Made by a program: the position numbers and the translations under genes. Source: Candidatus Latescibacterota bacterium (GTDB taxonomy: Bacteria; Latescibacterota; UBA2968; GCA-2709665). From it: 64,000 bases of DNA. Location: contig OZ244937.1 of NCBI GenBank assembly GCA_965222075.1, positions 3,008,001 to 3,072,000 on the forward strand. Reading direction: 5' to 3'. The notes under the pieces were generated by a model, which saw only the letters and a program-made list of their open reading frames with translations, searched no databases and was not told where the DNA came from. Below are positions 1 to 25,500 of this stretch, one piece after another. How positions within the stretch are numbered: the first letter of the stretch is position 1; every line of letters starts with the position of its first letter.

Positions 1-363
1 GTCCGAAGCAAAATACAGCCGGTCACCCCAGTCGAACCCCACCCATTTGATGTCCTCCTTCATAGACTCCACATATTCTGTTTCTTCCCTCACCGGGTTG
101 GTATCGTCAAAACGCAAATTGCAGATTCCGCCGAACGCTTCCGCCACACCAAAATTCAGGCAAAACCCAAAGGCATTGCCAATATGCAAATACCCGTTCG
201 GCTCCGGCGGAAATCGGGTCACAATACGGCCGTGTTTCCCTGTCTTCAGGTCTTCCCGGATAATATCCCGGATAAAATCAGACGGCGCGTCTTCGCCTGC
301 CTGCCGAGCAGATCTCGGCGCAGGCAGGCCCGCTTCCACGTTCTTCTCTTCTACCTGTTCCAT
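1..363 (-). CDS. glnS: Glutaminyl-tRNA synthetase, N-terminal part (runs off window)
   Basis: Manual translation of the minus strand from ATG 363: [10 protein letters not shown]...[45 protein letters not shown]...[41 protein letters not shown]; not in the ORF track. Confidence 0.95.
296..328. repeat. 33-bp CCTG...CAGG hairpin element inserted in frame in glnS
   Basis: cctgcctgccgagcagatctcggcgcaggcagg; removal leaves [12 protein letters not shown] in frame. Confidence 0.8.
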
Positions 364-573
364 AAGCGTCGCCTCGCGTGAATACAACCGAATCCGTCGA
401 AGCAATATGCCTCTCATCGTTATTGGACAGAAGCCTGAAAAACCGCCAGTTATCGAGAAAACGCCTCACCCAATTATATCAAACAAGCACGGTATGATCA
501 AGAAATTCTTGAGCACGGCCCTCTACTGCAATCCAACATGGCCTGCCTGACACACACAAAGGAAGCCACAGAA

Positions 574-3500
574 TTACGAAGTTCCATCCCTCCAGAAAAA
601 GAGACTGCTTCGTTCCCGGCAGAACTCATAAAATGCCTTAAAACACCTGTTGGCCTTCAAGTCCTCCTCCATTTGAGGCACGGTTGAGAAAAACATCCGG
701 CTTCCCACCACAATCAGCTTCTGTCTTGCGCGTGTGATTGCCACGTTGAAACGGTTCGGATTGTTCAGAAAATGGCTCGTGATATGATCCGGATCGGATG
801 CCGTAAATGCGAACAGGATCACATCCCGTTCGGCCCCCTGAACGCGCTCTACAGTATCGATCAGGGGAAGCGTCTCGCCCACGAGCAACCTCCCAAGCCG
901 GTCTGCGGTGGCGTTGTTCTGCGCTCGATGTGGGGAAATCAAGGCCAGTTGATCTGCGGTCAAACCGTATCTGCTCATCAGCCGATAGGCAAGTTCAGTC
1001 ACAATTTCAACTTCCGGATCCGACTTCTGGTGGCACCCCCGATGATCCACCACCAGGAGTGAGACCGGTTTTTCAGGGTCAAGAACGCAATCCAACAAAT
1101 CGTTCTGTCGGGGGTCACTTAAAACAAGCCGGCTATGGGCGTTGTCAGCCGCGGCGACAAGCGTCCCGTCGTACCAGGTCCGGCTTGGAAAAGCACACAG
1201 CTCCTCATTCATCCGATAGGTCTGATCCAGCCGGACACGGCATGCCGGACCATAACAATCCAGAAGATGGGAAAGGACCGACCGATGCGCGTCGAACGTC
1301 GCGCCTGCATCCTCACCGTAGTCTCCCAGAACCACGGGCGGCAGCTGTTTCACATCGCCGTAAAAGAGAACTTTTCCCTTTCCATAAATCAGGCTCAGAA
1401 GCGCCTGGGGGATGAGCACCTGAGAAGCCTCATCGAAAACAACCCGGTCAAACACCTGGGGAAAGGCGCCTTTGCGTCCCTCAAACATCTGATAAAGCCC
1501 AAACCCCGTAGCACCCAGAATCACATAAGGATATTCCGCAAGCGCTTCCACACTGTCCAGGGGTTCTACGCGCCAGCCGCCTTCTACCGCCGGGTCTTCC
1601 CCTTCCCAGCGTCCCCACTTCAGACACTTCCCCGGAAAGTCCTGCAAGCCGTGCTGTCTGACCAGTGTCACCACCTTTTGCAGCACCTGGTCAATGGCCT
1701 GATGCGTCAATGCGCTCACCACAATACGCAGCGGCACCCCCACCTCCCGGGCTTGTTGAATGAGGGCGATCAACGTCCAGCCCAGCAAATGCGTCTTACC
1801 CGTTCCCGGCGGCCCCTCAATCAAGCTCACGCGGTACTGGAAAGGAAGGGCCAGCGCCTGCTGCTGCGTCGGGTTGAGTCCCGATACCGGCCCAAACGCA
1901 CCCAGCCAGTTCTGCGCCCAGCGCAGCCCTTCGGGGTCCTGGTCTGTGGACCACCCGCCCGAAAACAGCTTCGACAGCGGATGGGGGCGGTCCGCAGAAA
2001 AAACCGTCCGAACCGCGTGGACCAGCTTTGGACCGTTCCAGTCGGTCACGTCCTCCTCTAAGGAACAGACCAGCCGCCGATTCAGGGCCAGCCGCCCCTG
2101 TCGGGAATGCACCCACACCCGACCGGCATTCCGATCGTCCGCAGCCAGAATAACGGGAAAGCCGCTTTGAAGATCGGGCGTGCCGACCGGTGCAAGTTTA
2201 AGAAAATCGCCCTCACGAAATTTTGAAACCCCGGCCTCCGGATCGGTCTCAAACCCGTAAAGAAAACGGCCTTCGTCGTCAAGCGCCGTCTCCTGAAAAC
2301 GCAGCGGACCCATGGCCCGGAAGCGCTCCACGCGTTCTTCTAAAGTATATGCCTGCAGGGTGAGAATATCCTCTTCTCGAAGTCGCTTTTCCTCCTCTAA
2401 AAAATTCAAATACGGCGTCTCCGGCGCGTAGACCACACCGGGCACCACCTCCCAGCCCCTCTGTTCCCACTCGCTCTCCAGATGCGAAGACGCCCATCGC
2501 CAGACCCCCGCCTGAAGGGTCAGAATAGCGTCCACGCGTTCGGCCATCTCCCTCCGCTGACCTTCGTTCCGCGCCCATTCTTCGGGCAAAACACAGGGGG
2601 CGTCATCTGCATGGAACAGACTCTCCGGCTCACGCAGTTCCGGCTTCAGCCCCAGCAGGCGTCCAAGGGAAAAAAGCGTCAAATTACCGGGCGCGGGGAG
2701 GTCGAAATGCGCCCCAACCAGCCGCCGCAGGTCGGTCCGGTGGGTGCGTTCGTGCGCCCACAGGAAGGCCAGCTCTGTCGCCTCGCCCCACACCTGGAGC
2801 GCCTGCCAGCACCGCTCCCCAAAATGAAACACGTGCGGCCCCTGTCCTCCTTCAACGCTTTCTTCCCACACCTTCAAAAATCGCTCTGTAAAAGCCTGCA
2901 ACACCTGCGGCAGTTCACCCTCCGATGCGTCAACCCAGACCTGGCCGTCTACAACGGTCCCCCCCCGCAACGCCCGCCAGCCTGCACCGCGCGGCAACCC
3001 CGAAATCGGGTCTTCAATCAGATGGATGAAAATGGCCGTTGAAAGGTTATCCGGAAAAAGCCGGGTCTTCCGTTCCCGAAGGCCAATCCGGTTTGTTCTC
3101 AGAGCCGTAAGACGGCCCTCCAGCAGTTCTCGCTGGTGCGGGCTGAAAAGATCGCCCTCGACCGGTTCTTGAGACGGTCGTTCAAACCACGCACCGGCTG
3201 CCTCTACGGTCTTCAGCCCAAGCGCCCGAAACTTCTGCAAAGCGCCCGCAGTCAATTGCGGCAGAAACAGCACGTCTTCTACCCCGAGCGCCTCCCGGTA
3301 ACAATGCTCAAAATTGGGACAGGTCGTGCAGTGGGTCCGGAGCCGATAGGTCGCTTCCGAAGGCGCCTTCAGCAAAACCTCGCCCACATTTCGAAAGAGC
3401 ATGGGAAACGCGGCCAGATAAGGCTGGAGATCAAACCTGTGCTGCTCGGGCGCCTCAGTCCGTAGGCGTGGACGCAGCATCAGAAAACCCGAAGCGGCAA

Positions 3501-6369
3501 CCTCGGCCTGCACCTGTGGGCGAATCAACGCCTTCAGCATCAGGGCGTAAAACGCCACCTGCCATTTCTGGCTGTCATAGGGCATCCGACTATCCTTGAT
3601 ATCCCCCACCTCTATCAGCGGCCCCCGATCCCCCATCGAAACCCGGATGAGATCGGGAATACCAACCCCGTCTACGCCGCACAGCCAATCGTCTTCCCGG
3701 CCCAGCACGGATGGCAGGATCAGGACGGCCTGAGCGAGCACAAACGACCGGTCCGGCTCCGATTCGACTCTGTGGACCAGGCATTTCAGCTGTTCTAAAG
3801 ACGCTTCAAACCGCGCCTTCAGGGAATGCCTCCGGCCATCGGCATCGATCTCCTCCACAACGGACAGCGCCTCTCCACTATCCCGGATGTGGTCCAGCAC
3901 TCGCCGCTCGTGCAGCCTTCCCCGCTCCATCCGCAGCGCTCCTGAATCCGTATCTCCCCCTCGCCATTCGGGGGGACGCTGGTCGGGCGGCATAAAATTG
4001 AGACTCAGCCACCGTTCACACTGCTGATGCCCAAGATAGGCCCCTACCATCGTCCCGGTAAGCGTCCGCGGCCGGTGCCGCGCATCCGGTCCAAACGCGA
4101 ACACATCCTGTTTTACGCCAATGCCCCACCGCTGCTTTTCTCCTGTCAACAGGGCATCTACCCCAGGCGCCGTATCAAACAGAACCGGCGTGCGCCGCTC
4201 CGCTTCTTGCACCTCCTGTTCAAGTACGGTGGGATCTCCTGAAACCACCTCCGAAGATCGGTCTGAATACCGGCGAAAAACCTCCGCGATCCGGCAATCA
4301 AAAAGAAAATCCGTCAGTTCCTCCACCAGCAACGCACGTGGCAAAACCGCACAGAAGGCATTCAACGGAAACAGCCCGCACAGGGCTTCCAGGTGCCGCT
4401 CTGTCCACCGGGAAAACGCCTCTTTCTCTGTGGGCAGAGAAAGGGTTTGGAAATCAATCCGATGTGAACAGTCGATCCCAACCTCATCGGAGACCACGGT
4501 AAGATCCTCCGGACGAGGACTTAAGTCGTGTTCAACCGTCCACTGAAGCACCAGATTGCCCACAGATCCGAGATAAGTCCAATAGCGGTAAAGCCCTCCC
4601 ACCCCGCGTCCAACCTCAATACCGTTATCCAGCACCACCCTTCGCCCGGCGCGATCCAGTGCGGTCTCCAACAGCCTCCGGGTGCGGGCAAACAGCCCCG
4701 GCGCCTGCGCTTCGGCGCCTGCCCGGAACACCTCCCGAATCGATTGGGCCACTTCGTAGGAAATCCGGAAGCCGGCGCCCAGCCAGAAAAGCTCCTTCTC
4801 GTCTAACCGGTCCACGGGCCGCGCCACCACATGCCTCCGCTCTCCGGCCTCGATCTTCAGAACCTGAAGGCGCTTCCCTGCAAGCTGCACCCGATCTCCC
4901 GGTTCAAGCTGTCGGACAACCGATTTCGGAAGGTCCGCAATCGCCTCTCCCGAAAGCTCTAAGGTATAATCCACCTCGGCTTCGGGGAAATTGCTCCAGA
5001 TCCGTCGTTCCAGAAAACAATCCCGGTAGCGCCGCCCGCCCCGGAAAAGGCCCCTGGTCCGGTCTTCCCGCAACCACCCCTGCCGGACCATCGAGGCAAA
5101 CAGAGGGTCAATGGCCTCCCGACGATCCGGAAACAGCGCCTGAAGAGCCGACAGGGAAATCCGCTTTTTCTCGTACAAACAGGAAAGGACCTGCTGGACC
5201 AGCACGCTGGGCAAGTCTCGGGGCTGGGGAGACTCAACGATGCCCTGCCGGGCCAGACGCAGTAGCCCCAAAAACCGAAAAAGCTGCGCCTCGGCCTCCT
5301 CTCCCCGGCAGATTCCCCAGAAGTGTGTGCAAGCCTCCCGGCGGTTGGACCGGCCGATGCGCTGGAGAAAGGCCGACGCCGAATCGGGCGGCTCGTAAAG
5401 CAGCACGCCGTCCACATCGCCGATATCGATGCCCAGTTCAAGCGTGCTTGTCGCAATACAGAGCGCGTGTGCACGGCGTCGAAACCGGTGCTCCACCCCC
5501 CGGCGTTCTTTCGACTTTAAATTGGAGTAGTGCAACTCGGTAACGCCCTGAAAACGCCCGTGGTGGCTTAAAAGCGAAAACAGCCGGTCGCAGCAGCTCC
5601 GGCTGTTGGCAAACACCAAAACCTTCCGGTAATCCCATACGTCGTAAAGATCGTCCAGCAGAGCGACGAGTTCGTGCTCATCGTTTTTCAGGTGAACGAA
5701 GTGGGGCGCAATCTCCCGCTGAACGGGCTCGGTTAACCGAACCGCATCGTCCCCAAACCCAAAAAATCGTACCACCGCATCCACGTCGGCAATCGTAGCC
5801 GAAAGGGCAACCTTCTGCACCGGCCCGGCCGTGCGGCGCTCTAAGCGCTGCAGCAAATAGGCCAGTTGTCGCCCCCGATAGCGATAAATCAGCGGATGCA
5901 CCTCGTCGATAATCACCGTACCGATGCGCTGTACAAAACCCCTCAGATCCGCGTTGGAGCTGCCCAGCGTGACATCCAAAGACTCGGGCGTCGTCAGCAG
6001 CAGATCCGGGCGCGCCCCACCGGCCCGCTTGAGATCCCCGGTGCGCACCCCCATCCGCAGGCCCAGCCGTTCGGCCAGAACCGGCGCCAGACGCCGCTCT
6101 AAGTCCACGGCTAAGGCCCGGGTGGGGACCACGTAAAGAACCGCCTGTTCTCGTCCCGATTGAATCACCCGTTCCATGCAGGGCGCCAGCACCGCCTCGG
6201 TCTTTCCCGACCCGGTTGCCGACTGCACAATCAGGTCTTTGCCCTCAAGCAGAGGTTCGATTGCCCGTTTCTGAATAGGATAAAGATAGGGAAAAGACCC
6301 GTAAAACGCCCGGTAAGTGTTGGGAAGTTGAAGGAGGGAGGAGGTTGAATCGTGGAGGAGAGGGGACAT
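574..6369 (-). CDS. Fusion: Lhr-like DEVH SF2 helicase + Fe-S PD-(D/E)xK (RecB/Cas4/TM0106-like) nuclease + Upf1/Dna2-like SF1 helicase
   Basis: SF2 motifs SATGSGKT, DEVH, SAT, TSTLELGIDIG, QRIGRSNR; nuclease C..., GIPD, DIK, QVAFY, CTTCPNFEHC; SF1 motifs GPPGTGKT, DEASQ, GDVKQLPP, YRM, VQGAERD, NVAITRAR. Confidence 0.9.
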   Translation of the reverse strand: MSPLLHDSTSSLLQLPNTYRAFYGSFPYLYPIQKRAIEPLLEGKDLIVQSATGSGKTEAVLAPCMERVIQSGREQAVLYVVPTRALAVDLERRLAPVLAERLGLRMGVRTGDLKRAGGARPDLLLTTPESLDVTLGSSNADLRGFVQRIGTVIIDEVHPLIYRYRGRQLAYLLQRLERRTAGPVQKVALSATIADVDAVVRFFGFGDDAVRLTEPVQREIAPHFVHLKNDEHELVALLDDLYDVWDYRKVLVFANSRSCCDRLFSLLSHHGRFQGVTELHYSNLKSKERRGVEHRFRRRAHALCIATSTLELGIDIGDVDGVLLYEPPDSASAFLQRIGRSNRREACTHFWGICRGEEAEAQLFRFLGLLRLARQGIVESPQPRDLPSVLVQQVLSCLYEKKRISLSALQALFPDRREAIDPLFASMVRQGWLREDRTRGLFRGGRRYRDCFLERRIWSNFPEAEVDYTLELSGEAIADLPKSVVRQLEPGDRVQLAGKRLQVLKIEAGERRHVVARPVDRLDEKELFWLGAGFRISYEVAQSIREVFRAGAEAQAPGLFARTRRLLETALDRAGRRVVLDNGIEVGRGVGGLYRYWTYLGSVGNLVLQWTVEHDLSPRPEDLTVVSDEVGIDCSHRIDFQTLSLPTEKEAFSRWTERHLEALCGLFPLNAFCAVLPRALLVEELTDFLFDCRIAEVFRRYSDRSSEVVSGDPTVLEQEVQEAERRTPVLFDTAPGVDALLTGEKQRWGIGVKQDVFAFGPDARHRPRTLTGTMVGAYLGHQQCERWLSLNFMPPDQRPPEWRGGDTDSGALRMERGRLHERRVLDHIRDSGEALSVVEEIDADGRRHSLKARFEASLEQLKCLVHRVESEPDRSFVLAQAVLILPSVLGREDDWLCGVDGVGIPDLIRVSMGDRGPLIEVGDIKDSRMPYDSQKWQVAFYALMLKALIRPQVQAEVAASGFLMLRPRLRTEAPEQHRFDLQPYLAAFPMLFRNVGEVLLKAPSEATYRLRTHCTTCPNFEHCYREALGVEDVLFLPQLTAGALQKFRALGLKTVEAAGAWFERPSQEPVEGDLFSPHQRELLEGRLTALRTNRIGLRERKTRLFPDNLSTAIFIHLIEDPISGLPRGAGWRALRGGTVVDGQVWVDASEGELPQVLQAFTERFLKVWEESVEGGQGPHVFHFGERCWQALQVWGEATELAFLWAHERTHRTDLRRLVGAHFDLPAPGNLTLFSLGRLLGLKPELREPESLFHADDAPCVLPEEWARNEGQRREMAERVDAILTLQAGVWRWASSHLESEWEQRGWEVVPGVVYAPETPYLNFLEEEKRLREEDILTLQAYTLEERVERFRAMGPLRFQETALDDEGRFLYGFETDPEAGVSKFREGDFLKLAPVGTPDLQSGFPVILAADDRNAGRVWVHSRQGRLALNRRLVCSLEEDVTDWNGPKLVHAVRTVFSADRPHPLSKLFSGGWSTDQDPEGLRWAQNWLGAFGPVSGLNPTQQQALALPFQYRVSLIEGPPGTGKTHLLGWTLIALIQQAREVGVPLRIVVSALTHQAIDQVLQKVVTLVRQHGLQDFPGKCLKWGRWEGEDPAVEGGWRVEPLDSVEALAEYPYVILGATGFGLYQMFEGRKGAFPQVFDRVVFDEASQVLIPQALLSLIYGKGKVLFYGDVKQLPPVVLGDYGEDAGATFDAHRSVLSHLLDCYGPACRVRLDQTYRMNEELCAFPSRTWYDGTLVAAADNAHSRLVLSDPRQNDLLDCVLDPEKPVSLLVVDHRGCHQKSDPEVEIVTELAYRLMSRYGLTADQLALISPHRAQNNATADRLGRLLVGETLPLIDTVERVQGAERDVILFAFTASDPDHITSHFLNNPNRFNVAITRARQKLIVVGSRMFFSTVPQMEEDLKANRCFKAFYEFCRERSSLFFWRDGTS

Positions 6370-6394
6370 GATAAGGGCTCGGAATGATGTGCGG

Positions 6395-7618
6395 CTACAA
6401 CACCCGTTCTTGATGCACCAGGTCCAGCTGGTCCACCAGCGCCTTCAGCTTGTAGCGGGTCTCCTGGCCCTGCATCTCGGCCAATCGTTCGGCCATCTCT
6501 TTGCGCACCCGTGCCGGCGGCGGCCGCCACTGGTAGGCCCTGCCGTGGAGGTGCATCAGTTTTCCGGCCAGTTCATCCCATTCCCGCCCGGATAGATCCT
6601 GTAACCGATAGCGCATCAGGCCTTTCCAGGTATCGGCATAATCCTTTTCAAAATAGGGCATTTCCAGGTCGCCCCGAACCTTCACCCGGTCGTATTCCTC
6701 TTCCTCTACCTTCTGAAAAAAGTCGTCCGTAAAAGCGAAAATCGGATAAAGATAACGAACCGTTGCCTCGGGGACAAACATCCGATCCAGGATCTGGTAA
6801 CTCCGGCTGCGGGCCGTAATACGCACCTGCGAGATCGATTCCCCCTCGTCAAACAGCAGCACCCACCCCCGGTACCCCATCTTCCGAAAAAGCCGGGCCA
6901 GCCCCCGGACCATCTGAAGATAAGGCTCGGCGCCCCGACAGGTCAGCGACGCCTGCATGTAGAAATCGACCTGCCGGTACTTGAGCGCGTGCCGCAGCCG
7001 GAAGACCGGCGCCACATCGCCTGCAAGCGCCCGGGAAAGCAGATAGGGAAATTCCCTTGGCCGGTACGACGCGTGTTTTTTGGTCTTCCGCTGCCGCCTG
7101 GAAAGCAAAACCGTCTTCTGCGCAATCCCCACCAGCACCGACCGGAACAGGTGGGGCATTTCCTCCGGCAGGAGGTCAACCACCCCGTTCTCAACCCCCT
7201 CGCCCGTCTGCCCCTCGGCCCACGTTCGCCACTGTGCAATCAACGACGCCCCGGTTCCCGGAAACCGCAGATTGGCCATCAGCGCCCGGTAAGTCTGCCG
7301 AAAATCGTGGAAGGCAACCTCCCGGGGATCCAGGTTGATCATACTGGTTACGAAATTTTCCCTCAGCGCCCGGCCCTGGATATAGGTCAAACTGTGCGAT
7401 TTCCCCTGCCCGTAGGCCCCGCAGATGCACAGGTGTGGGACCTTTCCTCGATCCAGCGCCTGGAACCCCCCGTCCACCGCCTGGTTCAGCCGCTCCTCGT
7501 GGGCCGTCAACAGCCGGACCGCCACCGGGTCGAACAGCCCCTCCCGCAGCCGTTCCACCGCGCGCCGCAAGTGAAAATCGGTCTCTCCGTCCAGCCTCTG
7601 AAAATCTCTCGTCCCCAT
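6395..7618 (-). CDS. BrxD/DUF2791-like P-loop ATPase (second copy)
   Basis: RRAVERLREG N-terminus, Walker A GAYGQGKS, Walker B VLLFDEGE; start reset to ATG 7618, which overlaps the upstream stop (TGATG). Confidence 0.85.
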   Translation of the reverse strand: MGTRDFQRLDGETDFHLRRAVERLREGLFDPVAVRLLTAHEERLNQAVDGGFQALDRGKVPHLCICGAYGQGKSHSLTYIQGRALRENFVTSMINLDPREVAFHDFRQTYRALMANLRFPGTGASLIAQWRTWAEGQTGEGVENGVVDLLPEEMPHLFRSVLVGIAQKTVLLSRRQRKTKKHASYRPREFPYLLSRALAGDVAPVFRLRHALKYRQVDFYMQASLTCRGAEPYLQMVRGLARLFRKMGYRGWVLLFDEGESISQVRITARSRSYQILDRMFVPEATVRYLYPIFAFTDDFFQKVEEEEYDRVKVRGDLEMPYFEKDYADTWKGLMRYRLQDLSGREWDELAGKLMHLHGRAYQWRPPPARVRKEMAERLAEMQGQETRYKLKALVDQLDLVHQERVL

Positions 7619-8922
7619 CACGCATCCCACTTCGGCTGAAGCTGCTCCACCTTCTCCTGCTCCATCTCCTGCTGGCTGGCCACAAGCTGCTCGCTCAGAT
7701 CCGCATCTTCGTCCGGAGGACTCCCCTGCTCGGCCATGTCCAGGAGGCGAATCACCTGTTTGATAAAAAGCCGAACTTCGCTTAAAAGCCCCATGCGCCT
7801 CTGGACAGCGCACACTTTTTTCATCAGCGCTTCCCCGATCTGGCCCTTTGTCTCCCACCTGTAAGCCAGCTCATGGATGCGGCACAGGCACAGCCCCAGT
7901 TCGAGCAGCTCTTTGGTCTCCAAAGGCGTCCTGTGCAAATCGATCAGCACGCTGCGGTAATTCAGTCGTTTGCCTTCGCCAATGGAGCGCACCCGACTCC
8001 AGAGCGCATCGTAAGACTTAAACCCCTTTTCCGAGAGGATCACATCGGGGATAATAGACATGAAAATGTGCAGGTAGGCCGCCTGCTCGGCATTGTCGAT
8101 CAGCAGCCGGACGTTCTCATAGGACGCATTGCGGATGGATGTCGATTGGGCAATCACCGTCTCTAACTCGTCCATCAGCAGAATCAGCCCCCTGTACCCC
8201 AAATGGTGCAAAAACGCAATCAAAGACCCCATAAAACGCTTGCTGTTGGTCTTGTCCAAAGCTTCAAAAATCTGGAACGGCTTTAACTCCCGCTTGCTTA
8301 CCCGCGCCCCTTCAAACCACTGGTAGAGCACTTCGCGCCCCTCAAGCCGGTCGCCTTCGGCCTCGCCCTCTTCCAGGGGTCTGAGTTGATTGTCCGCCAG
8401 CCCCATCAGCGCGTTGGCAAAATTGAGGTCCATCCCCGGAAGCGCGCGCAGAGATTCACCCAATGACGCCAGCCGCTCCTCAAGCGGAGGGCCCTCTTTT
8501 GTCGTCAGATCGGCCTTCAAGCTTTCTGTCCAGCCGTTGACCATCTGCCGGATACCCGTGCCTTCAAAAGTCCCGCAGAGTTGCCGGGCAATGGACTGGT
8601 AGACCACCTCGAATTTGTGGATGGGCACTTCGCGGGTGAGCACCACAAAGGATACCGCGAACGCCTTTTGCAGGGAAAGGTGTCGAACAATCGACATAAA
8701 ATGCGTCTTGCCGTCGCCGTAGTCCCCGTTGATAAAACGGACCTTGGCCCCGCCCTCCGCAATATAGTTATCTAAATCCTCTTCAATAAACTTCAGCCAG
8801 TTCTGGCGGCCCACCGTGAAAAACGGCACATGCTCGATCGGCACACTGCCCTTCCGGAGGTCTTCGATAATCGCCCGGGCCTCAAAGGGCTTCAACCTTT
8901 CCAGTTCTTCTCTGTGAGTCAT
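7618..8922 (-). CDS. BrxD/DUF2791-like P-loop ATPase (first copy)
   Basis: ARAIIEDLRKGSVP, GRQ, Walker A GDYGDGKTH, Walker B LILLMDELE, GFKSYDALWSRV. Confidence 0.88.
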   Translation of the reverse strand: MTHREELERLKPFEARAIIEDLRKGSVPIEHVPFFTVGRQNWLKFIEEDLDNYIAEGGAKVRFINGDYGDGKTHFMSIVRHLSLQKAFAVSFVVLTREVPIHKFEVVYQSIARQLCGTFEGTGIRQMVNGWTESLKADLTTKEGPPLEERLASLGESLRALPGMDLNFANALMGLADNQLRPLEEGEAEGDRLEGREVLYQWFEGARVSKRELKPFQIFEALDKTNSKRFMGSLIAFLHHLGYRGLILLMDELETVIAQSTSIRNASYENVRLLIDNAEQAAYLHIFMSIIPDVILSEKGFKSYDALWSRVRSIGEGKRLNYRSVLIDLHRTPLETKELLELGLCLCRIHELAYRWETKGQIGEALMKKVCAVQRRMGLLSEVRLFIKQVIRLLDMAEQGSPPDEDADLSEQLVASQQEMEQEKVEQLQPKWDA

Positions 8923-8942
8923 CGCTTACGCCCCTTTCGTCC

Positions 8943-9776
8943 TTATTTCTGAAAAGCAATCGTCGTAATCTGCCGCCGTTCGCCATCGCTGTCGATCAGC
9001 CAGAGGGCGCGGTTGCGTCCCGATCTGATCTGTAAGGCGTACCCATCCGAAGTGCCCCCTGTGTAGGCCTGAAAATAGCGCCAGAGGTCTACGGCGAACT
9101 GATCTAAGCTGTAGCCCCGGAACTTTCCCTTGTCCATATCCTGAAAAAAAGACTTGCTCTGAAGCGAAATCACGTATTCGAGATAAAACTGCTGCATCGG
9201 AACGGTCTCCCCCGGTTCCCCCTGCGCTTTCTTGAGAATATCCACGTAGACCTGAAAAAGCCCGTCGATAAACGCCTGCGGGTCGTAGGGACGGTCGTAA
9301 AGCTGCTGCTTCACCCTGCGAACCGCCGTGATAATACGCCTCGGGTCAACCGACTTCAACGTCTTGTTGTTGATCACGGTCTTCCGCACGGTAAAATCGA
9401 CGTTTCCCTCAATACCCTTCAAAACGGTAAACCGGGGAAAGTCGATCTTCATCGGAAGCTCGGCCTCTTTTGCCTGCGCCTTCAAATCTTTGATGAACTG
9501 GATGCGATAAAGCTCCACCTGTTCGTTGGCATAACCGCGCAGCTGATCCAGCAATGCCTTGCAGGCCTTCAGACCGGTCTCCGCTTCCACATCGCCGGCC
9601 ATCTTAGACCTGAGCAGTTCGTCGAGTTGAAAAAAATCGTTCCGGTCGGCGCACCGGATGCACTGCCGCACAAAATCGGCCATCCGCTGACGCCGGTTCA
9701 GCCGCTGTTGATAGGGCCTGAGCACCTCCGACAGCCCCTCCTGCATCTCTTCAAGAAATTCTCCATCATTTGCCAT
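8943..9776 (-). CDS. Hypothetical protein (277 aa), first gene of the ATPase-helicase operon
   Basis: Likely start MANDGEF at 9776 with AGGA upstream; 20-bp gap to next gene; no recognisable catalytic motif. Confidence 0.8.
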   Translation of the reverse strand: MANDGEFLEEMQEGLSEVLRPYQQRLNRRQRMADFVRQCIRCADRNDFFQLDELLRSKMAGDVEAETGLKACKALLDQLRGYANEQVELYRIQFIKDLKAQAKEAELPMKIDFPRFTVLKGIEGNVDFTVRKTVINNKTLKSVDPRRIITAVRRVKQQLYDRPYDPQAFIDGLFQVYVDILKKAQGEPGETVPMQQFYLEYVISLQSKSFFQDMDKGKFRGYSLDQFAVDLWRYFQAYTGGTSDGYALQIRSGRNRALWLIDSDGERRQITTIAFQK

Positions 9777-9865
9777 TCGGGATTCCTGACGGTTTAAGGG
9801 GTGGACGGGACAACTGATATGGCACACAAAATAACACGCCCGGAATGGAAAAGCAAGGCATACGA

Positions 9866-10099
9866 TCAGTCTGGCCATCCCGGTATTTTGCAGCTGTCAA
9901 ACCCTGGCTTCACCTGTTCTGGGAACATAGGCGAAACAACAAATTTGTCCTTTTGATCAAACCGGGTCAAAATACAAAAAGGCTCCTCCGATGGGTCATC
10001 TTCTTTTGCGCAGGACAGGCAGAGACCCGGTTTGGGTATCAGATCAGGCGTAATCTCCGTGCCGTCATCATCAAAGAACCGGAGTGGATGCGCTTCCAT
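9866..10099 (-). CDS. Small Cys-containing protein (DDDG-PDLIPKP-CxxC), possibly frameshifted near its C-terminus
   Basis: RBS-like GAAGGG before ATG; CLSC...C; an alternative frame continues CFAYVPRTGEARV* to a stop at 9897. Confidence 0.55.
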   Translation of the reverse strand: MEAHPLRFFDDDGTEITPDLIPKPGLCLSCAKEDDPSEEPFCILTRFDQKDKFVVSPMFPEQVKPGFDSCKIPGWPD

Positions 10100-10458
10100 T
10101 TTCTAACCCTTCTCACAATGTTCCAGAATCCAGGGCCAATCCCGCTGGATCGCCGCTTTCAGGGCCTCGACATCCGTTTTTCGTACCATCTTCTCCTCCG
10201 CCTATGTAGAAAATGCCAGCGAAAATCCACTTTCCACCTGAAAAGAAACTCCCAAATCCGGACCATAGACTCCGGATAATATAAGGAAATTCTCGCGCAT
10301 CAGAAAGTGTAATCCAGGCCCAAAATCTGGTGCCCGGATGGTGACCTTTAATCATTCTCTGCCCAACCAATACTTTCGTTCGAGTGGCCAGGAGATCAGC
10401 GCAATCCCCTTGAACCGCTCAAAGCGGCTGAAACCTTGGCGCCACCTGAAGATGGCGA

Positions 10459-10740
10459 TCAATCAAACAGGTTCAGTTGATCCAGTCCTCGACATCCACC
10501 AAAGGTCCAAGCCACATAAATCGCGCTTTTCCCTTTGATGTAACCCACCACTTGAGAAACCGCATACTTTGGGAGGACCGACACAAACATATGCACGTGA
10601 TCCCCCATCAGGTGGCCTTCCAATACCTAACTCTCCTTCTGGCGAGCCAATTCACGCAACACTTCGCCCAGATACTTACGCAAATGACCATACAACACTT
10701 TCTTCCGACATTTTGGAATCCACACCAAATGATACTTTAG
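10459..10740 (-). pseudogene. tnpA: IS200/IS605 TnpA (Y1 transposase) remnant
   Basis: KYHLVWIPKCRKKVLYG...KES*VLEGHLMGDHVHM (HUH)...YIKGKSAI; in-frame TAG, 5' end and catalytic-Tyr region missing; hairpin ccgct-caa-agcgg near 10415. Confidence 0.9.
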
Positions 10741-10805
10741 CCCTTCAGAAAAAGAATCTGAAAAATAGGTAGTGCCTCCAGGGTGAGGTGATAAAATGGT
10801 GCTGA

Positions 10806-10976
10806 GTGGTTGAGCCACCTTTGCCTGGTTGTTGAATTTCCGGCGTCTTTCCAAGGATTATGAAGTCTTGACACGAAATAGCGAAACGCTCATTCCTGCC
10901 TGTGCCAACGGCAGACAGGTACATTGCGATGATTCACCTTTTGATCAAGAGACTCGCTCCCAAATCTGAATTTTAA
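10806..10976 (+). pseudogene. IS5-family transposase C-terminal remnant
   Basis: Manual translation TFAWLLNFRRLSKDYEVLTRNSETLI[25-bp insert]YIAMIHLLIKRLA matches the typical IS5 C-terminus (ERTFAW...RRLSKDYE...IYIAMI). Confidence 0.85.
10895..10919. repeat. 25-bp CCTG...CAGG hairpin element inserted in the IS5 remnant
   Basis: cctgcctgtgccaacggcagacagg lies exactly between the Ile and Tyr codons. Confidence 0.85.
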
Positions 10977-11000
10977 AACGGCTTCTTAACGATTTGTCCA

Positions 11001-12203
11001 TTATATTTCCTCCAAGACGATCTCATATTTGGCAATGACGAAATTGTCAGGCTGATCATTCTGAATGTGATACAAAAAACCGTCTGCATCAGCGGCAATG
11101 CGTTGAAACCTTATTGGTATTTCCGATTGGAGAGGCATATCCGTCATTAAACATTGCCCTGTATTTACATCATACGCACTCAGGTAGTGAGAGCGCGTCC
11201 AGTTGGGTATGCCCCGGCGTACTTCTTCTGTTTGCAAAACCAACAAGAGTGAATGCTTAGCAACATACGCAATATCCACAAGAAATGTTATCGTCGAATG
11301 CTCGTTTTTCATTTTTTCAAAGGCCAATCTTGCTTTTGCTCTGTTGCTCAAATGTCGAAGTTTTGCCGCGTTTTTCTCAGCATCTTTATCAATCCACCTT
11401 GGTTTCGTAATCGGCGTTGCAACGTTGAAAACTCTGGAAACCGCATTCCTGTCGTCATATCTAACAACAATAGGGATGTTAAAGAACCAGAGATACGTTT
11501 GTGAATCGCCACTTGCGATAAATTTGGGAAATGACCACTTAAATTCCGCTAAAGGTTTGTCGAGTTTGTCACCGACGATCTCTTGATTGAATTTTCCATA
11601 ATAAGACAGTACGTTACCCAATGTATCAAATTCACAGATCAACCAGGGATAGGAGTATGATTGCCACTGCTTTTTGGGTAGTCCCACAGATTTCTGGCAG
11701 TGTAGAATGGTATGATGGAACGTGATTGCCACACGATTGCCCGAAGGTACTGACGTTTGCGTCTGGGTTCCAAAAGACCTTATGAACACGCCCGAAGTAT
11801 CAAACAGGGTTATTCTACGGGTTCCCTGGTCAAAACAAGCGACCATGTTGCCTTTGACATCCATCGTATATAAATAGCGAAATTCCCCAGGACCTTCGCC
11901 GCTTCTGCCCAAGGCGCGAATAAATCCGCCTTCCATAGAGAACATCAGAATTTGCTTCAGACTCTTGTCCATAAGATAAATTCGGTTTTCATCAACTATT
12001 ATTTTTAATATTTTTCCAATATAAGCTTCTTCTCTTTCTTTCAGGTGGATCTCGGAAACCTTCTCCATCCGTATCTGCCGGTTCTTCTTCGTATGCACGG
12101 TTGAACCTTGCAAAAGCGGTGTCTTTTCTTGAGGCATTTCCGCCTTTTGATTGCACGCAAAAAAGAAACAGAAAGCACAAAATAGAATGATTGAATTTGT
12201 CAT
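11001..12203 (-). CDS. 6-bladed beta-propeller (NHL-like) lipoprotein
   Basis: Lipobox-like FFAC; LGRSGEGPGEF motif; repeated (F/Y)DxxG blades; start placed at MTNSII. Confidence 0.75.
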   Translation of the reverse strand: MTNSIILFCAFCFFFACNQKAEMPQEKTPLLQGSTVHTKKNRQIRMEKVSEIHLKEREEAYIGKILKIIVDENRIYLMDKSLKQILMFSMEGGFIRALGRSGEGPGEFRYLYTMDVKGNMVACFDQGTRRITLFDTSGVFIRSFGTQTQTSVPSGNRVAITFHHTILHCQKSVGLPKKQWQSYSYPWLICEFDTLGNVLSYYGKFNQEIVGDKLDKPLAEFKWSFPKFIASGDSQTYLWFFNIPIVVRYDDRNAVSRVFNVATPITKPRWIDKDAEKNAAKLRHLSNRAKARLAFEKMKNEHSTITFLVDIAYVAKHSLLLVLQTEEVRRGIPNWTRSHYLSAYDVNTGQCLMTDMPLQSEIPIRFQRIAADADGFLYHIQNDQPDNFVIAKYEIVLEEI

Positions 12204-12319
12204 ACAAACAACCTTCTCGGAACACAATAACAAGGGAATAGAAATCGGGTTCAAGTCAGTAATTTCCGGTTACGCTCCGTTCCTCAACGCCATCTGAACT
12301 CTGCACGGCTCTCAATTAA

Positions 12320-15300
12320 TCACACTCGCTTTGCTTTGTAAAAAAGCGCGGGGAGTATCAATAATACGCCAACAGAGGAAAACCAGAGTCCACCGACAGT
12401 ACCCAAGGCAAAAGCGTGCCAGAGCGTGCCGTTTTGAAACCAGATTAAGAAGGGCAATAACCCGCCTATAGAAGTCGCGCCAGTGACCAGAATGGGACGA
12501 AGCCGACTCAGACAAACCTCGAATATTGCCGACTGGGGAAGAGGAGTTTGATTCTTCAGTGCTCTTTTTTGTAGCTGATAGAGTAAAATGATCGCGTTAT
12601 TAACAGAAATCCCTATCAAGAACACCATCGCAAAATATCCACCCTGTGTAAATACGCCGTCAAAAATGAAAAACACAAGAAAGAGCCCAATAAAAGCCAT
12701 TGGCACAGTCCAAAGAATGATAAAAGGTTGTCGAAAAGATTCATATAGTGCAGCCAAAATCATATAAATGAGGATAGCACTCAAAAAAACCGCACCCCAC
12801 AACGCCCCCTCATCATCAAAAAAATCAAATCCCCCCCTATTAAAACCATATCCCAGAGGCAAAACCATTGCGTCTCGGATTTTCCTGATAATTCGACCGC
12901 CATAGCGTCCTAGCCCTGCGTAGTCATAGGTCACCAAACGCGAGTAGGCTTGATTTCTTCTCTGAATAACGGGAAGTGTGGGGCGTTTTTCGATTTGTGC
13001 AATATCTTCTACTTTCAATACTCTTTCTGCGGCCTGTGTTTGTTTGTTCAGATCAGAAATGGTATGGACGCGATCTTCTGGGAGGTAATCTATATATACT
13101 GAAATATTCTTCTTTTGTCCCTCTATAGCAGACCGATACATTCCGTCCGGTAGGGTTAAACTGGAAATATGGCTGAACATTGCACCAACATCCTGATGCG
13201 CTTTCCACAATTGCTCTCTATCTGGTATTGCGACAACATTCCATGCAGGTTTTCTGCCAAATGATGCTTGATCTATCGAAATATTAGAGAAACGTCTGTG
13301 CTTAGAGATTTGCACAGCTAAATTTCGCGCTATTTCTTTTACCTTCAAATAATTATAACCACTCACGAAAGTGAAAAGTTTTGAGATATCAGCTCCTCTC
13401 ATATTCCGAAATCCCGGACCATACCCCTGAACTGAGCATTCTATGCCGCCAAGCGAAACAGCCACCTGCTCAAATACCTGGTGGAGCGTGATCAGTAAAT
13501 CATCTGGATCTTGCCTGCGCGCCATTTTAACCTTCAAAAGTGCTTCGTAATTATTCGCAACACGCGTTTCGTAATAAATATCTGAAGGAAATTTGTCCAA
13601 ATGGGTCTCAAATGCAGACACGACTTGTAAAAGATATTTGACCTCTGTATAACGAGGCATTTTAATTCCAACAGTTACATAACTTTCCTCTAATCTTACA
13701 CGTCCTTCCACAGATCCAACAATGGGAACATGGCGATAAAATAAATAATGGCTTCCCCCCAGCACAGTGTCAATATAAGGTCTCGCATTCAAGTACGCCT
13801 CACTTGCAAAGATCGCATCGTATAATTCAGCAAACCGCGATTTAATCATCTGTGTAGTAGATAATTCACGTCCACTCTCTGTGCTTTGAACACCAGATGC
13901 CATATTGTCTGGCAAGAGCCACATCGGTATTCCAAACAACCACACCATCGCAACCAGAGCAAATCGTCGGTAACGAATTGTTTTATTCAATAGCCACCAG
14001 TAAGCAGCTTGCCACCCACCTCGTTTTTCGGATTCGGTCTGAGCAGAAATAACCCCTTGAGGATGATTTTTTTTAGATCGCAAAATAAAGCGGTGGGTAG
14101 CGACATAAACCAGTGTAAAAGCAGACAAAGTCGAGGCTACGAGGGCGCTTGATACGACAATGGCAAAAGGTATGAGATAAAGTTTTGTTTGAGCCGACAA
14201 AATGACCAGAGGTAAAAACGCGCCAAGCGTCGTAAGCGTAGATGCGAGTATAGGCATTCTAACACTTCGAATGCCACTCTCTTCTAATGCACCAGTGTTG
14301 CGAGTCGCATGGTCTTTTTGCAACCGGTCAATAACCACAATAGCATTGTCAGCCATGATACCCAATGCAATGCCAAGCCCAATCAAAGTCACGCTGTTCA
14401 AACTGATTTTGCAAAAGAACATCACAATAAACGTCAAGCATAGAGAAAATATTAAAGAAACAAATACAATGATAACGGCTGGCACAGAACGAAACGCAAC
14501 AAGCAAAATCAAGAACAGACACCCGGCAGAAAAAACCACACTTTTAAGTAAAACCGAAATATCTTCTTTCAAATCCTGGCTTCTGTCTTGAATGACATCG
14601 ATTTTGACCTGGCGTGGTAAAGCACGTTCTTTTTTTAAATTCTCCAACTTTTTGTGAATATTGTCGGCAAGGGCTAAAATATTAGACCCCGGTTCGCGCG
14701 TGATTTCCATGACCACAAAGTCGCGCCCATTGATTCGAAAAAAAGTTTCGGGATCGTCATAATCGTATTTTATGGTCGCTATATCACCGAGCAAAACAGT
14801 CAGGTCGCCTGCTGAAATAGGCAATTTGGAAAGCGCGGAAACAGGGTGAGTATCCAAAGATTCTAATTTGACCCAGAATGTCTGGTCATTATTAGATATT
14901 TTTCCAAGATAAATTTTTCTATTAAATGCAGAGATTTGTTGATAAATCTCCCGGAGATTCAAGCCCAAAGAATTTATCATCGCTTGGGAAACTTCAATTC
15001 GCAAGACTTTCTGCGCCCCTCCAGTAATGCTAATTTCACCAACCCCATCCATACCGATAAGCTCAGGCCTTAAAATTTCTTCTGAAATTTTGCGAAGTTC
15101 ATGAAGGCTTTTTAAGCCCAATATTCTCAGACGCATAAAACCAATTTTATCGCGAAATTCTTTGGGAACATAAGGTCGAATTTTAGGAGGTTTAATCCCT
15201 TCGGGAAGTTGCTCATAGAAACGAGCCAATTTGTCTTTTAACTCCAGACGAATAAATGTCGGGTTGGCTGTTCTCAATAGCTCTATCGTCAACTGTGCAT

Positions 15301-15565
15301 AGCCAAAACCAGAACTGGAACTCACACTCTTAACGCCAGGGATGCTGACAGCGATCGCTTCAAGAGGTGCTGTTAATTGTGCCTCTATCGATTCTGGAGA
15401 AGCCCCTGTCCATGACGCAGAAAGACTCATCCGGGGATATTCTAAAGCAGGCAGCAGTTCAATAGGCAATTGCAAAACAGCGATCAGGCCAATCGAAATG
15501 ACAGCAATCGTAAACATGGCGACCGCTATGGGCCGCCTTTGTAATTTATCAGTAAATGTCATCAA
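12320..15565 (-). CDS. RND efflux permease (AcrB/AcrD/AcrF family), divergent copy
   Basis: 1081 aa, 12-TM pattern, PIELLP, GASPESIEAQLTAPLE, DNAIVV, LYESFRQP, RLRPILVT. Confidence 0.93.
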   Translation of the reverse strand: MMTFTDKLQRRPIAVAMFTIAVISIGLIAVLQLPIELLPALEYPRMSLSASWTGASPESIEAQLTAPLEAIAVSIPGVKSVSSSSGFGYAQLTIELLRTANPTFIRLELKDKLARFYEQLPEGIKPPKIRPYVPKEFRDKIGFMRLRILGLKSLHELRKISEEILRPELIGMDGVGEISITGGAQKVLRIEVSQAMINSLGLNLREIYQQISAFNRKIYLGKISNNDQTFWVKLESLDTHPVSALSKLPISAGDLTVLLGDIATIKYDYDDPETFFRINGRDFVVMEITREPGSNILALADNIHKKLENLKKERALPRQVKIDVIQDRSQDLKEDISVLLKSVVFSAGCLFLILLVAFRSVPAVIIVFVSLIFSLCLTFIVMFFCKISLNSVTLIGLGIALGIMADNAIVVIDRLQKDHATRNTGALEESGIRSVRMPILASTLTTLGAFLPLVILSAQTKLYLIPFAIVVSSALVASTLSAFTLVYVATHRFILRSKKNHPQGVISAQTESEKRGGWQAAYWWLLNKTIRYRRFALVAMVWLFGIPMWLLPDNMASGVQSTESGRELSTTQMIKSRFAELYDAIFASEAYLNARPYIDTVLGGSHYLFYRHVPIVGSVEGRVRLEESYVTVGIKMPRYTEVKYLLQVVSAFETHLDKFPSDIYYETRVANNYEALLKVKMARRQDPDDLLITLHQVFEQVAVSLGGIECSVQGYGPGFRNMRGADISKLFTFVSGYNYLKVKEIARNLAVQISKHRRFSNISIDQASFGRKPAWNVVAIPDREQLWKAHQDVGAMFSHISSLTLPDGMYRSAIEGQKKNISVYIDYLPEDRVHTISDLNKQTQAAERVLKVEDIAQIEKRPTLPVIQRRNQAYSRLVTYDYAGLGRYGGRIIRKIRDAMVLPLGYGFNRGGFDFFDDEGALWGAVFLSAILIYMILAALYESFRQPFIILWTVPMAFIGLFLVFFIFDGVFTQGGYFAMVFLIGISVNNAIILLYQLQKRALKNQTPLPQSAIFEVCLSRLRPILVTGATSIGGLLPFLIWFQNGTLWHAFALGTVGGLWFSSVGVLLILPALFYKAKRV

Positions 15566-18780: not shown

Positions 18781-18804
18781 CGTCTGTCCAGAATCTCTTA
18801 AATT

Positions 18805-25359: not shown

Positions 25360-25500
25360 CGCCAACAAATGTTGGCGCATATTCCATACCTGTAGAGTCT
25401 TTACAAAACAAAATGTCCGCAACCTACTGTACAATATAAACTAAGGTTCGCCAACATGCGTTGGCAACCCTTGTGACCGTGTACTGCCAACAGGGGTTTA
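25360..25500. promoter_or_regulatory. Repeated palindromes GCCAAC-N4-GTTGGC, candidate upstream activator sites
   Basis: Copies at 25361-25376 and 25450-25465, half site at 25486. Confidence 0.55.

Follow-up and report, generated by a model that had tools for sequence, protein, structure and literature searches.

According to our analysis, positions 574–6369 of a 64,000-nucleotide stretch of Candidatus Latescibacterota DNA (contig OZ244937.1, positions 3,008,001 to 3,072,000; this whole stretch is called the window below) hold, on the minus strand, a gene for a giant protein of 1931 amino acids (aa) that joins a superfamily 2 (SF2) helicase, a PD-(D/E)XK nuclease with the cysteines of an iron-sulfur (Fe-S) type, an RNase H-like domain and a superfamily 1B (SF1B) helicase in one chain. 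The gene is the last of a conserved cassette of four, in which it follows the genes of a 277-aa protein, here called U277, and of two BrxD-like AAA+ ATPases. Judged by sequence comparison, the cassette is neither Shango nor BREX type 2. We have proposed, as a moderately probable reading, that it is an accessory and probably anti-phage or anti-plasmid system, which would form a third branch beside these two. The parts of the protein and the helicase-ATPase module were known before; the fusion, the duplicated ATPase and the first component are new.

An earlier note on this DNA had described a single polypeptide with two motors around a nuclease. It was right about the gene itself, and it took the gene in isolation, missing that it closes a conserved four-gene cassette. 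The company of BrxD-like ATPases and of a protein of an unknown family points to a conflict system related to Shango and BREX type 2 rather than to a recombination enzyme.

Reading frame and domains of the giant protein

The gene is one uninterrupted open reading frame (ORF) of 1931 codons running from 6369 to 574 on the minus strand, as the earlier note had it. That note had named a stop or misjoin near 4100–4250 as the weak point of its reading. Contigs of three other sequencing runs, aligned to 400–9900, bridge the suspected join with no indels listed: contig X7, from an independent run, covers 1681–6371 with 11 differing letters and 0 gaps, and contigs X12 (3134–9900) and X4 (3875–6336) span it with substitutions only. 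At least 0.74 of the sampled words of 3600–4800 occur in each of 13 runs of five studies. An open frame of 1895–1959 aa, free of stops, was found in 9/9 matching genomes of the phylum, own genome included. Nor is the fusion unique, the other weak point that had been named. A search with the middle region of the protein gave 150 clusters at E ≤ 1e-3 among 8000 candidates scored, and at least 105 of the 120 clusters listed hold both motors in one chain (DEAD and AAA_12 both present in 105, 1882–2174 aa); the remaining 15 are shorter (1120–1755 aa), several of them on short contigs. The listed clusters are 33–100% identical to the giant protein over its middle region. A misjoin in the assembly, read-through of two genes and a pseudogene in decay are rejected as exceedingly improbable explanations, given the indel-free contigs of three other runs across 3875–6336 and beyond, the fused homologue clusters, the stop-free frames across the phylum and the conservation of all motifs. 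The fusion is genuine and old.

The SF2, nuclease and SF1 motifs of the earlier note were all found at the positions it had given or a few bases away, and chance falls far short of explaining them. The N-terminal motor is a member of the BrxHI/SngC-type (Lhr-like) SF2 helicases, as assigned from its motifs, a full-length profile match and the adjacent BrxD/SngB-type gene. Walker A is GSGKT at residues 53–57 (nt 6199–6213), followed by DEVH (155–158), SAT (190–192) and QRIGR (336–340); Pfam recognizes DEAD at residues 30–196 (5.7e-34) and Helicase_C at 238–343 (3.5e-16). The PADLOC model of BrxHI (PDLC02503) is matched over its full length, with residues 26–699 aligned to 22–688 of 698 profile positions (6.5e-92), and the best NCBIfam match of the N-terminus is a ligase-associated DNA-damage-response DEXH helicase (3.1e-58, far below its cut-off). 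The closest solved sequence relative found by phmmer is Lhr 5v9x (1.5e-31), followed by 7lhl (7e-31), in agreement with the Lhr-like character suggested earlier. However, this alignment spans residues 22–274 only, and the C-terminal extension of Lhr itself is unrelated to the nuclease-SF1 part, no such match having appeared in the sequence search. Conservation was counted in an alignment of 41 full-length homologues, 46–86% identical overall; SF2 motifs I, II, III and VI are kept in 41/41, except that H158 is kept in 40/41, position 57 is T or S and V157 varies.

Residues 700–1500 were folded with an alignment of 48 homologues, which gave a mean predicted local distance difference test score (pLDDT) of 84.2 and a predicted template modelling score of 0.75. 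The model begins with a disordered linker and an alpha/beta nuclease core ending in three-cysteine helices, and continues with two paired helices, a domain of beta-beta-beta-alpha-beta-alpha-beta-alpha order, an extended helical stalk and a six-stranded barrel. The linker comprises the first ~25 residues of the model (1–25), with pLDDT <50, and the SF2 and Dna2-like halves are probably joined flexibly in this way. Foldseek rows, which carry no aligned ranges, were assigned to domains by the domain content and order of their targets. Against the PDB, the top match of the middle model was Dna2 5ean_A (4.9e-5, 772 columns, TM-score 0.16), followed by Ighmbp2 4b3g_A (3.4e-4) and Upf1 9qdq_A (4.0e-4); AdnAB, AddB, MGME1, Exo5 and RecE were found for the nuclease, and the PolC exonuclease 2p1j_B, an exonuclease-bearing DinG and Argonaute point to the RNase H-like fold.

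The nuclease carries a lone cysteine in QQCERW (residues 782–787, nt 4009–4026) and three more in CTTCPNFEHC (1014–1023, nt 3301–3330), and between them PDL (905–907), DIK (923–925) and QVAFY (937–941), the bracketed arrangement that had been read from the letters. C784, C1014, C1017 and C1023 are kept in 41/41 homologues, and the catalytic residues in 36–40 of 41: D906 in 40/41, D923 in 37/41 (with E in 3 more), K925 in 39/41, Q937 in 40/41 and Y941 in 36/41. Pfam PDDEXK_1 (885–1021) is marginal in the whole protein (3.3e-4, 21.1 bits, under the 22-bit cut-off) and lies just above the cut-off when the middle segment is searched alone (9.2e-5, 22.9 bits); Cas4 and TIGR03491 profiles give weak matches in the middle region. 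With its catalytic D, (D/E)xK, QxxxY and 1+3 cysteines, the domain can be placed among the Cas4/AddB/Dna2-type nucleases, and it would be expected to bind a 4Fe-4S cluster.

For the segment that follows, the earlier note had guessed at an RNase H-like fold in degenerate form, of the kind seen in TM0106-type proteins. The guess proved right, because the family profile aligns to the RNase_H_2 domain of another protein in which the DxE motif replaced here is present. Pfam RNase_H_2 (PF13482) gave no direct match in the middle region even at E ≤ 10, PADLOC gave none either, and the direct match to TIGR03491 (the TM0106 family) is weak (6.7e-4, 18.7 bits against a cut-off of 97). When the profile of the 41 sequences was aligned by hhalign to a 1148-aa protein of Erythrobacter sp. 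AP23 (locus L082), 979 columns were aligned with a probability of 99.85% and an E-value of 8.3e-31 (806–1929 of the family profile against 58–1144). Residues ~1109–1251 thereby fall on 336–478 of that protein, inside its PF13482 match at 336–518. The D-F-E of the Erythrobacter protein is H-L-I here: H1116 is His in 33/41, position 1118 is V, L or I in 30/41, and D1213 is kept in 40/41. By its residues, this is the only module that looks dead.

The C-terminal motor is a member of the SF1B Upf1/Dna2-like helicases, as judged from motifs I–VI, its closest relatives and the modelled barrel and stalk ahead of domain 1A. It contains GPPGTGKT (1519–1526, nt 1792–1815), DEASQ (1646–1650), TYRMN (1717–1721), QGAERD (1844–1849) and RFNVAITRA (1873–1881), which is the complete motif set that had been claimed, and all residues checked are kept in 41/41 homologues, except P1677 (40/41). 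Pfam AAA_12 (1.6e-28) and AAA_11 (2.1e-19) together span 1498–1891, and the NCBIfam IGHMBP2 family matches with 1.9e-43. The nearest solved relative is Dna2 5eaw (residues 1495–1898 against 624–1026, 6.8e-23); Upf1, a 5'-3' RNA helicase-like protein, Ighmbp2 and Sen1 rank later. In PADLOC, the C-terminus matches the generic SF1 parts of the DpdJ and MkoA models. As a separate observation, in the DpdJ model PDLC02895 (2112 positions), positions 45–477 match the SF1 part of the giant protein and 1290–1329 weakly match an SF2 motif of SngC, which suggests, at the level of profiles, that some Dpd proteins may be a two-helicase chain in reversed order.

The four-gene cassette and its relatives

The cassette lies on one strand in the order U277, BrxD-like paralogue 1, BrxD-like paralogue 2 and giant enzyme, with intergenic gaps of 20 and 25 nt and one stop/start overlap. 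U277 represents an uncharacterised family without a recognisable fold. It matches no Pfam, NCBIfam or PADLOC family (Pfam and PADLOC at E ≤ 1 to 10), and PADLOC 2023 holds no model for it. Its 531 homologous clusters at 90% identity are all unnamed or hypothetical and mostly 277–286 aa long; at 50% identity there are 404 representatives with E ≤ 1e-3, and the full-length ones are nearly all 260–300 aa. The ORF itself is open up to 9878 (8943–9878, 311 aa), and its 34 extra N-terminal codons in comparison with almost all homologues mark it as over-extended. In the confident model of U277 (pLDDT 89.2), a long hairpin of helices and a small beta domain precede a C-terminal half made of helices and strands. 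Foldseek found no match for it at E ≤ 1e-3 in PDB and BFVD, and the ESM Atlas gave only unnamed clusters; weak rows (E 0.9–5) for Cdt1, Stn1, MukE/F, JetABC and ORC subunits give a hint of winged-helix modules in the model.

Both ATPases retain their catalytic motifs. Walker A (GDGKT in paralogue 1, GQGKS in paralogue 2) and the DE of Walker B are invariant in 7/7 orthologues of each. PADLOC BrxD matches paralogue 1 with 1.1e-41 and paralogue 2 with 1.3e-18. Paralogue 2 truly starts at 7618, with an ATG that shares letters with the TGA of paralogue 1; a 487-aa ORF at 6395–7858 was rejected as an over-extension, since it has 240 nt in common with the ATPase gene upstream and since the alignment of distant orthologues begins only near its residue 89. 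A predicted complex of paralogue 1 with U277 scored 0.00 in two runs with the controls not folded, which counts neither for nor against an interaction. The features of the cassette are collected in Table 1.

Table 1. Domains of the giant protein and other genes of the cassette, with positions in the window
Feature	Residues or length	Position	Strand	Basis
BrxHI/Lhr-like SF2 helicase, complete (two RecA domains and C-terminal BrxHI domains)	1–700	4270..6369	minus	PADLOC, phmmer, motifs
PD-(D/E)XK nuclease, Cas4/AddB/Dna2 type, 1 N-terminal and 3 C-terminal Cys	~770–1034	3268..4062	minus	Pfam, Foldseek, conservation
Helix pair and RNase H-like (Pfam RNase_H_2, TM0106-type) domain without DxE	~1035–1320	2410..3267	minus	Model, Foldseek, hhalign
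Helical stalk and beta-barrel before the SF1 motor, as in Upf1/Ighmbp2/Dna2	~1321–1495	1885..2409	minus	Model (helices, then six strands); Foldseek Ighmbp2/Upf1 rows assigned by domain order
SF1B (Upf1/Dna2-like) motor, stop codon included	1496–1931	574..1884	minus	Pfam, NCBIfam, sequence search
BrxD-like AAA+ ATPase paralogue 2	407 aa	6395..7618	minus	Pfam BrxC_BrxD 7e-25
BrxD-like AAA+ ATPase paralogue 1	434 aa	7618..8922	minus	Pfam BrxC_BrxD 5.9e-57
U277, first cassette gene	277 aa	8943..9776	minus	Homologues begin at Met 9776

The four-gene order recurs in 6/11 loci compared (L004, L006 and L089–L092), across which the giant protein is 37–96% identical; in locus L005 the cassette is cut by the contig end. 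Beyond close kin, the loci have no flanking genes in common. Two side observations concern these loci: an AAA_14/DUF4143-type ATPase gene (Pfam) lies upstream of the cassette at 274–1506 of L004, and in L005 a 403-aa P-loop ORF (2427–3638) separates the giant gene from the second ATPase, its resemblance to AAA_14/DUF4143 being seen by eye only. Three short contigs of metatranscriptome run X19, which is labelled a sponge metagenome, fall at 1791–1980, 4326–4541 and 6859–7071 with at most one differing letter each; they give a hint of transcription of the operon and of the habitat, with carry-over of DNA possible. A promoter and terminator scan of 300–11000 gave counts at the level of shuffled sequence and nothing usable for a cassette operon. 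Apart from this, a near-consensus promoter-like site (TTGATC, 17 nt, TATAAT, with TG) is found on the minus strand at 473–501, ahead of the transfer RNA (tRNA) synthetase gene starting at 417, and this gene therefore probably has its own promoter and lies outside the cassette transcript.

According to 10.1101/2022.11.11.516204, Shango consists of a TerB protein, an ATPase and a helicase, and it is reported to have lowered the plating of several Pseudomonas phages. The cassette has in common with it a BrxC_BrxD-family AAA+ ATPase followed by an Lhr-like SF2 helicase, with a third gene in front, and the SngB and SngC profiles match paralogue 1 (2.7e-33) and the giant protein (2.1e-72). However, SngA has TerB_N, TerB and TerB_C domains, whereas the first gene of the cassette lacks TerB and any Pfam or PADLOC match; moreover, the ATPase is duplicated here, and the helicase forms one chain with a Dna2-like nuclease-helicase. 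The scores are much lower than in true members (SngC, 243 bits against 897; SngB, 114 and 41 bits for paralogues 1 and 2 against 595), and the SF2 domain falls outside the TerB/Shango clade. In PADLOC and NCBIfam, the three proteins are best named after the BrxD-BrxHI dyad of BREX type 2 (Pgl). According to PMC12839542, BrxD is an AAA+ ATPase of the ORC/Cdc6 type that is closely tied to BrxHI, and it is proposed to load or activate the helicase. Nevertheless, the NCBIfam BREX_BrxD scores of paralogues 1 and 2 (140 and 66 bits) fall far short of the equivalog cut-off of 350 bits. No PglZ, PglX, PglW or BrxC was found among the ORFs scanned around the cassette, PglZ alone having been searched genome-wide: the two PglZ-domain genes of the genome (C1:625840-626352 and 682374-682952, in frames of 679 and 534 aa; L094 and L095) are more than 2.3 Mb from the cassette, which lies at 3.01 Mb.

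Unfused relatives are known from several lineages. In loci L012 (WOR-3) and L015 (Anaerolineae), a small protein and two ATPases are followed by an unfused helicase of 677–710 aa, and the small proteins are distant homologues of U277 (hhalign 95.4%, 2e-8 and 94.2%, 1.1e-7, respectively). The 26.9-kb plasmid pDESTI.01 of Desulfomonile tiedjei carries a hypothetical protein of 279 aa, itself a distant homologue of U277, two proteins named "BREX system ATP-binding domain" and an unfused DEAD/DEAH helicase, 701 aa long and 36% identical to the SF2 part described here; this cassette adjoins genes of AbiEi/AbiEii, RNase HI and a PD-(D/E)XK nuclease. Locus L007 (Chloroflexia) contains two BrxD-like ATPases, an unfused SF2 helicase and then a separate RecD/PIF1-like SF1 helicase of 1256 aa (10065–13835), the N-terminal 630 residues of which have no Pfam match; no U277 homologue was found at this locus. 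The 1256-aa helicase was rejected as a homologous partner, since only the generic SF1 domain 1A is common to both proteins, and the two are analogous.

The other half of the giant protein is also found apart. In Erythrobacter sp. AP23 (L082), a true Shango system (SngA 1.6e-98, SngB 2.3e-179, SngC 2.7e-270) is directly followed by the gene of the 1148-aa nuclease-RNase_H_2-SF1 protein mentioned above, which is homologous to the C-terminal two thirds of the giant protein and contains RNase_H_2 at 336–518 (6e-21), then AAA_11/AAA_12. The whole interval 2149–13510 of L082 is a defence island transcribed in the same direction, in which a TIR/Cap17-like ATP nucleosidase effector and an RNase T-type exonuclease precede Shango. 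The nuclease-RNase_H_2-SF1 protein stands alone in L051 (1142 aa, RNase_H_2 9.5e-25) and, more distantly, in L008, L009, L017 and L076. As compared at the level of sequence, the giant gene thus appears to unite two modules that are also found apart and, at least once, side by side.

A tree of the SF2 domain was built from 55 rows in a quick LG+G4 search, after removal of every locus (L012 and L015 among them) in which the best SF2 alignment spanned less than 450 residues of the query. The fused proteins form one clade with a Shimodaira-Hasegawa-like approximate likelihood ratio (SH-aLRT) support of 100. Together with the unfused two-ATPase forms (L007 and L010), they are split at 99 from the TerB-Shango, the Bacteroidota/Bacillota and the actinobacterial BrxHI-like clades; L010 and L035 are long-branched, and their placement is unsure.

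Among other known enzymes, eukaryotic Dna2 (5EAN/5EAW) shares the order of Fe-S-type PD-(D/E)XK nuclease, barrel and SF1B motor; it ranks first both in Foldseek for the middle model and, by sequence, among the solved relatives for the SF1 motor. The giant protein adds an RNase_H_2-type domain between the nuclease and the barrel, as well as a whole SF2 helicase in front, and the relative placement of the domains differs from that in Dna2, as the low TM-scores indicate. Proteins of the TM0106 type, with a RecB-like nuclease and RNase_H_2 alone or fused to AAA_11/AAA_12, have in L082 and L051 the same arrangement as its C-terminal part, but they have DxE, whereas the giant protein has H-x-(V/L/I) and the fused SF2. 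RecBCD, AddAB and AdnAB share with it the concept of two motors and a PD-(D/E)XK nuclease, Fe-S-stapled in AddB; however, they are multi-subunit enzymes with SF1 motors only, in contrast to SF2 and SF1B motors in a single chain. Foldseek and sequence searches against solved structures revealed no homology to these enzymes beyond the nuclease fold and generic motor domains. In the literature, no description of an SF2-nuclease-SF1 fusion or of the four-gene cassette was found, and supplementary tables (e.g., Data S1 of PMC12839542, on BREX neighbourhoods) could list such loci. In the sequence records examined, the family is annotated only as DEAD/DEAH box helicase, AAA domain-containing protein or hypothetical protein.

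Proposed function and its alternatives

Lhr and other Ski2/Hel308-like SF2 enzymes move 3'→5', whereas Dna2, Upf1, Sen1 and Ighmbp2 move 5'→3'; 1+3 cysteines bind a 4Fe-4S cluster in AddB, Cas4 and Dna2. From membership in these families and by analogy, we infer that the giant protein may be a bipolar, RecBCD-like helicase-nuclease and the effector of the cassette. The two ORC/Cdc6-type BrxD paralogues and U277 would control the giant enzyme or load it on DNA, where it would engage an end, a gap or a fork with its two motors. The SF2 motor would run 3'→5' on one strand and the SF1B motor 5'→3' on the other, both thus advancing in the same direction along the duplex, and the Fe-S-stapled nuclease between them would cut an unwound strand. 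The RNase H-like domain, with DxE lost, would most likely serve as a scaffold or a nucleic-acid-binding module. The probable target would be foreign DNA, of a phage or a plasmid. The polarity of the motors, Fe-S binding, the formation of a complex and a role in defence are thus all predicted features.

In favour of a role in defence, the BrxD/SngB and BrxHI/SngC profiles link three of the cassette proteins to validated defence modules. The conserved four-gene order, the non-shared flanks, the patchy spread, the Shango neighbour in L082 and the position of the pDESTI.01 cassette beside AbiE speak for it as well. Several points weigh against this reading. The scores of the cassette to BrxD and BrxHI are well below those of true members. 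The nuclease-helicase adjoins only 1/6 of the TerB-type Shango loci examined, and its adjacency to Shango in L082 may be a mere co-location in the island. U277 and BrxD paralogue 1 show a conservation that is unusual for immune genes: U277 is 60–99% identical to its 120 listed homologues, which include named members from several phyla. The middle of the giant protein drops to 33–40% identity in its more distant listed homologues (Electrothrix and Desulfobacula among them). No integrase, tRNA or known defence gene was found near the cassette within the stretches examined, and neighbours of housekeeping type occur in L006 and L089. Finally, both parent enzymes, Lhr and Dna2, are repair enzymes.

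In a different explanation, the cassette would serve accessory genome maintenance: stalled forks, flaps, double-strand ends or R-loops of the cell itself would be the substrates of the Lhr-like and Dna2-like chain, with the AAA+ pair as a loader. Lhr and Dna2 are the closest solved relatives, the top N-terminal NCBIfam match is the DNA-damage-response helicase (far below its cut-off, as given above), and an RNase H-like domain with Sen1/Upf1-like motors would suit the handling of RNA:DNA hybrids. The housekeeping genes around the cassette in the window, the very high conservation of U277 and BrxD paralogue 1 and the many records of cable bacteria (Electrothrix) that hold cassette proteins also fit. 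However, the giant gene is present in only 9/168 genomes of the phylum (own genome included; 4/49 genera), that is, patchily, and in 5/41 of the nearest genomes (own included), namely in 1/21 other genomes of the same family and 3/19 of the sister family. Its flanks vary between lineages, and an unfused version lies on a 27-kb plasmid beside an Abi toxin-antitoxin pair. Among proteins with profiles, the nearest relatives belong to BREX type 2 and Shango; in addition, DxE is missing from the RNase H-like domain. We regard genome maintenance as rather improbable. A further alternative keeps the defence role and gives up bipolarity. One motor, most likely SF2, would be the sensor or switch by which the Dna2-like nuclease-helicase is released, and the motors would never translocate together on opposite strands. 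This would agree with the low-confidence, probably flexible linker (pLDDT <50) between the halves, with the existence of the two halves as separate genes in other lineages (L082 and L051) and with the sufficiency of SF2 alone in the unfused cassettes (L012, L015 and pDESTI.01); HamB of Hachiman has likewise been proposed as a sensor helicase. The catalytic motifs of both motors are kept in 41/41 homologues, but this shows only that both hydrolyse ATP and does not tell a switch from a bipolar enzyme. Given the flexible tether of SF2 and its sufficiency where the cassettes are unfused, the switch and the bipolar model are not separable here; we consider the switch unlikely.

Returning to the defence reading, its strongest form can be put forward only tentatively, and we hold it to be somewhat doubtful as a whole: the giant protein would be the first single-chain enzyme with opposed SF2 and SF1B motors flanking an Fe-S nuclease, a self-contained RecBCD-like degrader loaded or switched on by a hetero-oligomer that comprises two ORC/Cdc6-type ATPases and a protein of a new fold, in a previously unnamed anti-phage or anti-plasmid system that would reveal the role of the BrxD-BrxHI and SngB-SngC modules. 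In PMC12839542 and 10.1101/2022.11.11.516204, the mechanism of these modules, which are conserved parts of BREX type 2 and Shango, is the subject of proposals only. If the strong form is true, they would deliver the helicase to foreign DNA for a nuclease partner. The cassette hard-wires a module of this type to a nuclease-helicase whose catalytic sites can be recognised, and the logic of the effector would be helicase delivery combined with Dna2-like degradation. Furthermore, the giant protein would offer a natural single-polypeptide model for the coordination of two motors of presumably opposite polarity.

Surroundings and distribution

Source-named holders of giant-protein homologues are Gemmatimonadetes, Latescibacteria, SAR324, Desulfococcaceae, Desulfobacula, Desulfobacter and many Candidatus Electrothrix. 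By these names, the family occurs in environmentally important groups, such as the cable bacteria (Electrothrix), Desulfobacterota, Gemmatimonadota and Latescibacterota. Phage collections gave no match to U277 or to the middle region of the giant protein.

In the window, the cassette is flanked downstream by the Glu/Gln-type class I tRNA synthetase gene and upstream by a beta-propeller gene and a resistance-nodulation-division (RND) efflux operon. No tRNA or integration marks were found in 30 kb of the window or in the 16 kb to its left. The G+C content is about 0.43 over the RND efflux operon (12000–20000) and about 0.60–0.64 elsewhere (2000–8000 and 40000–64000). Base composition was rejected as a sign of transfer, because it swings between 0.43 and 0.64 across the window and is thus unusable for calling the cassette foreign; the low-G+C efflux block may itself have been acquired.

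Farther along the window, at 25498–30414 on the minus strand, a single-chain regulator of 1638 aa was observed, in which domains of a Ser/Thr protein kinase and an AAA_16 (STAND-like) ATPase are united with TPR repeats, GAF, a sigma-54 activator domain and HTH_8.

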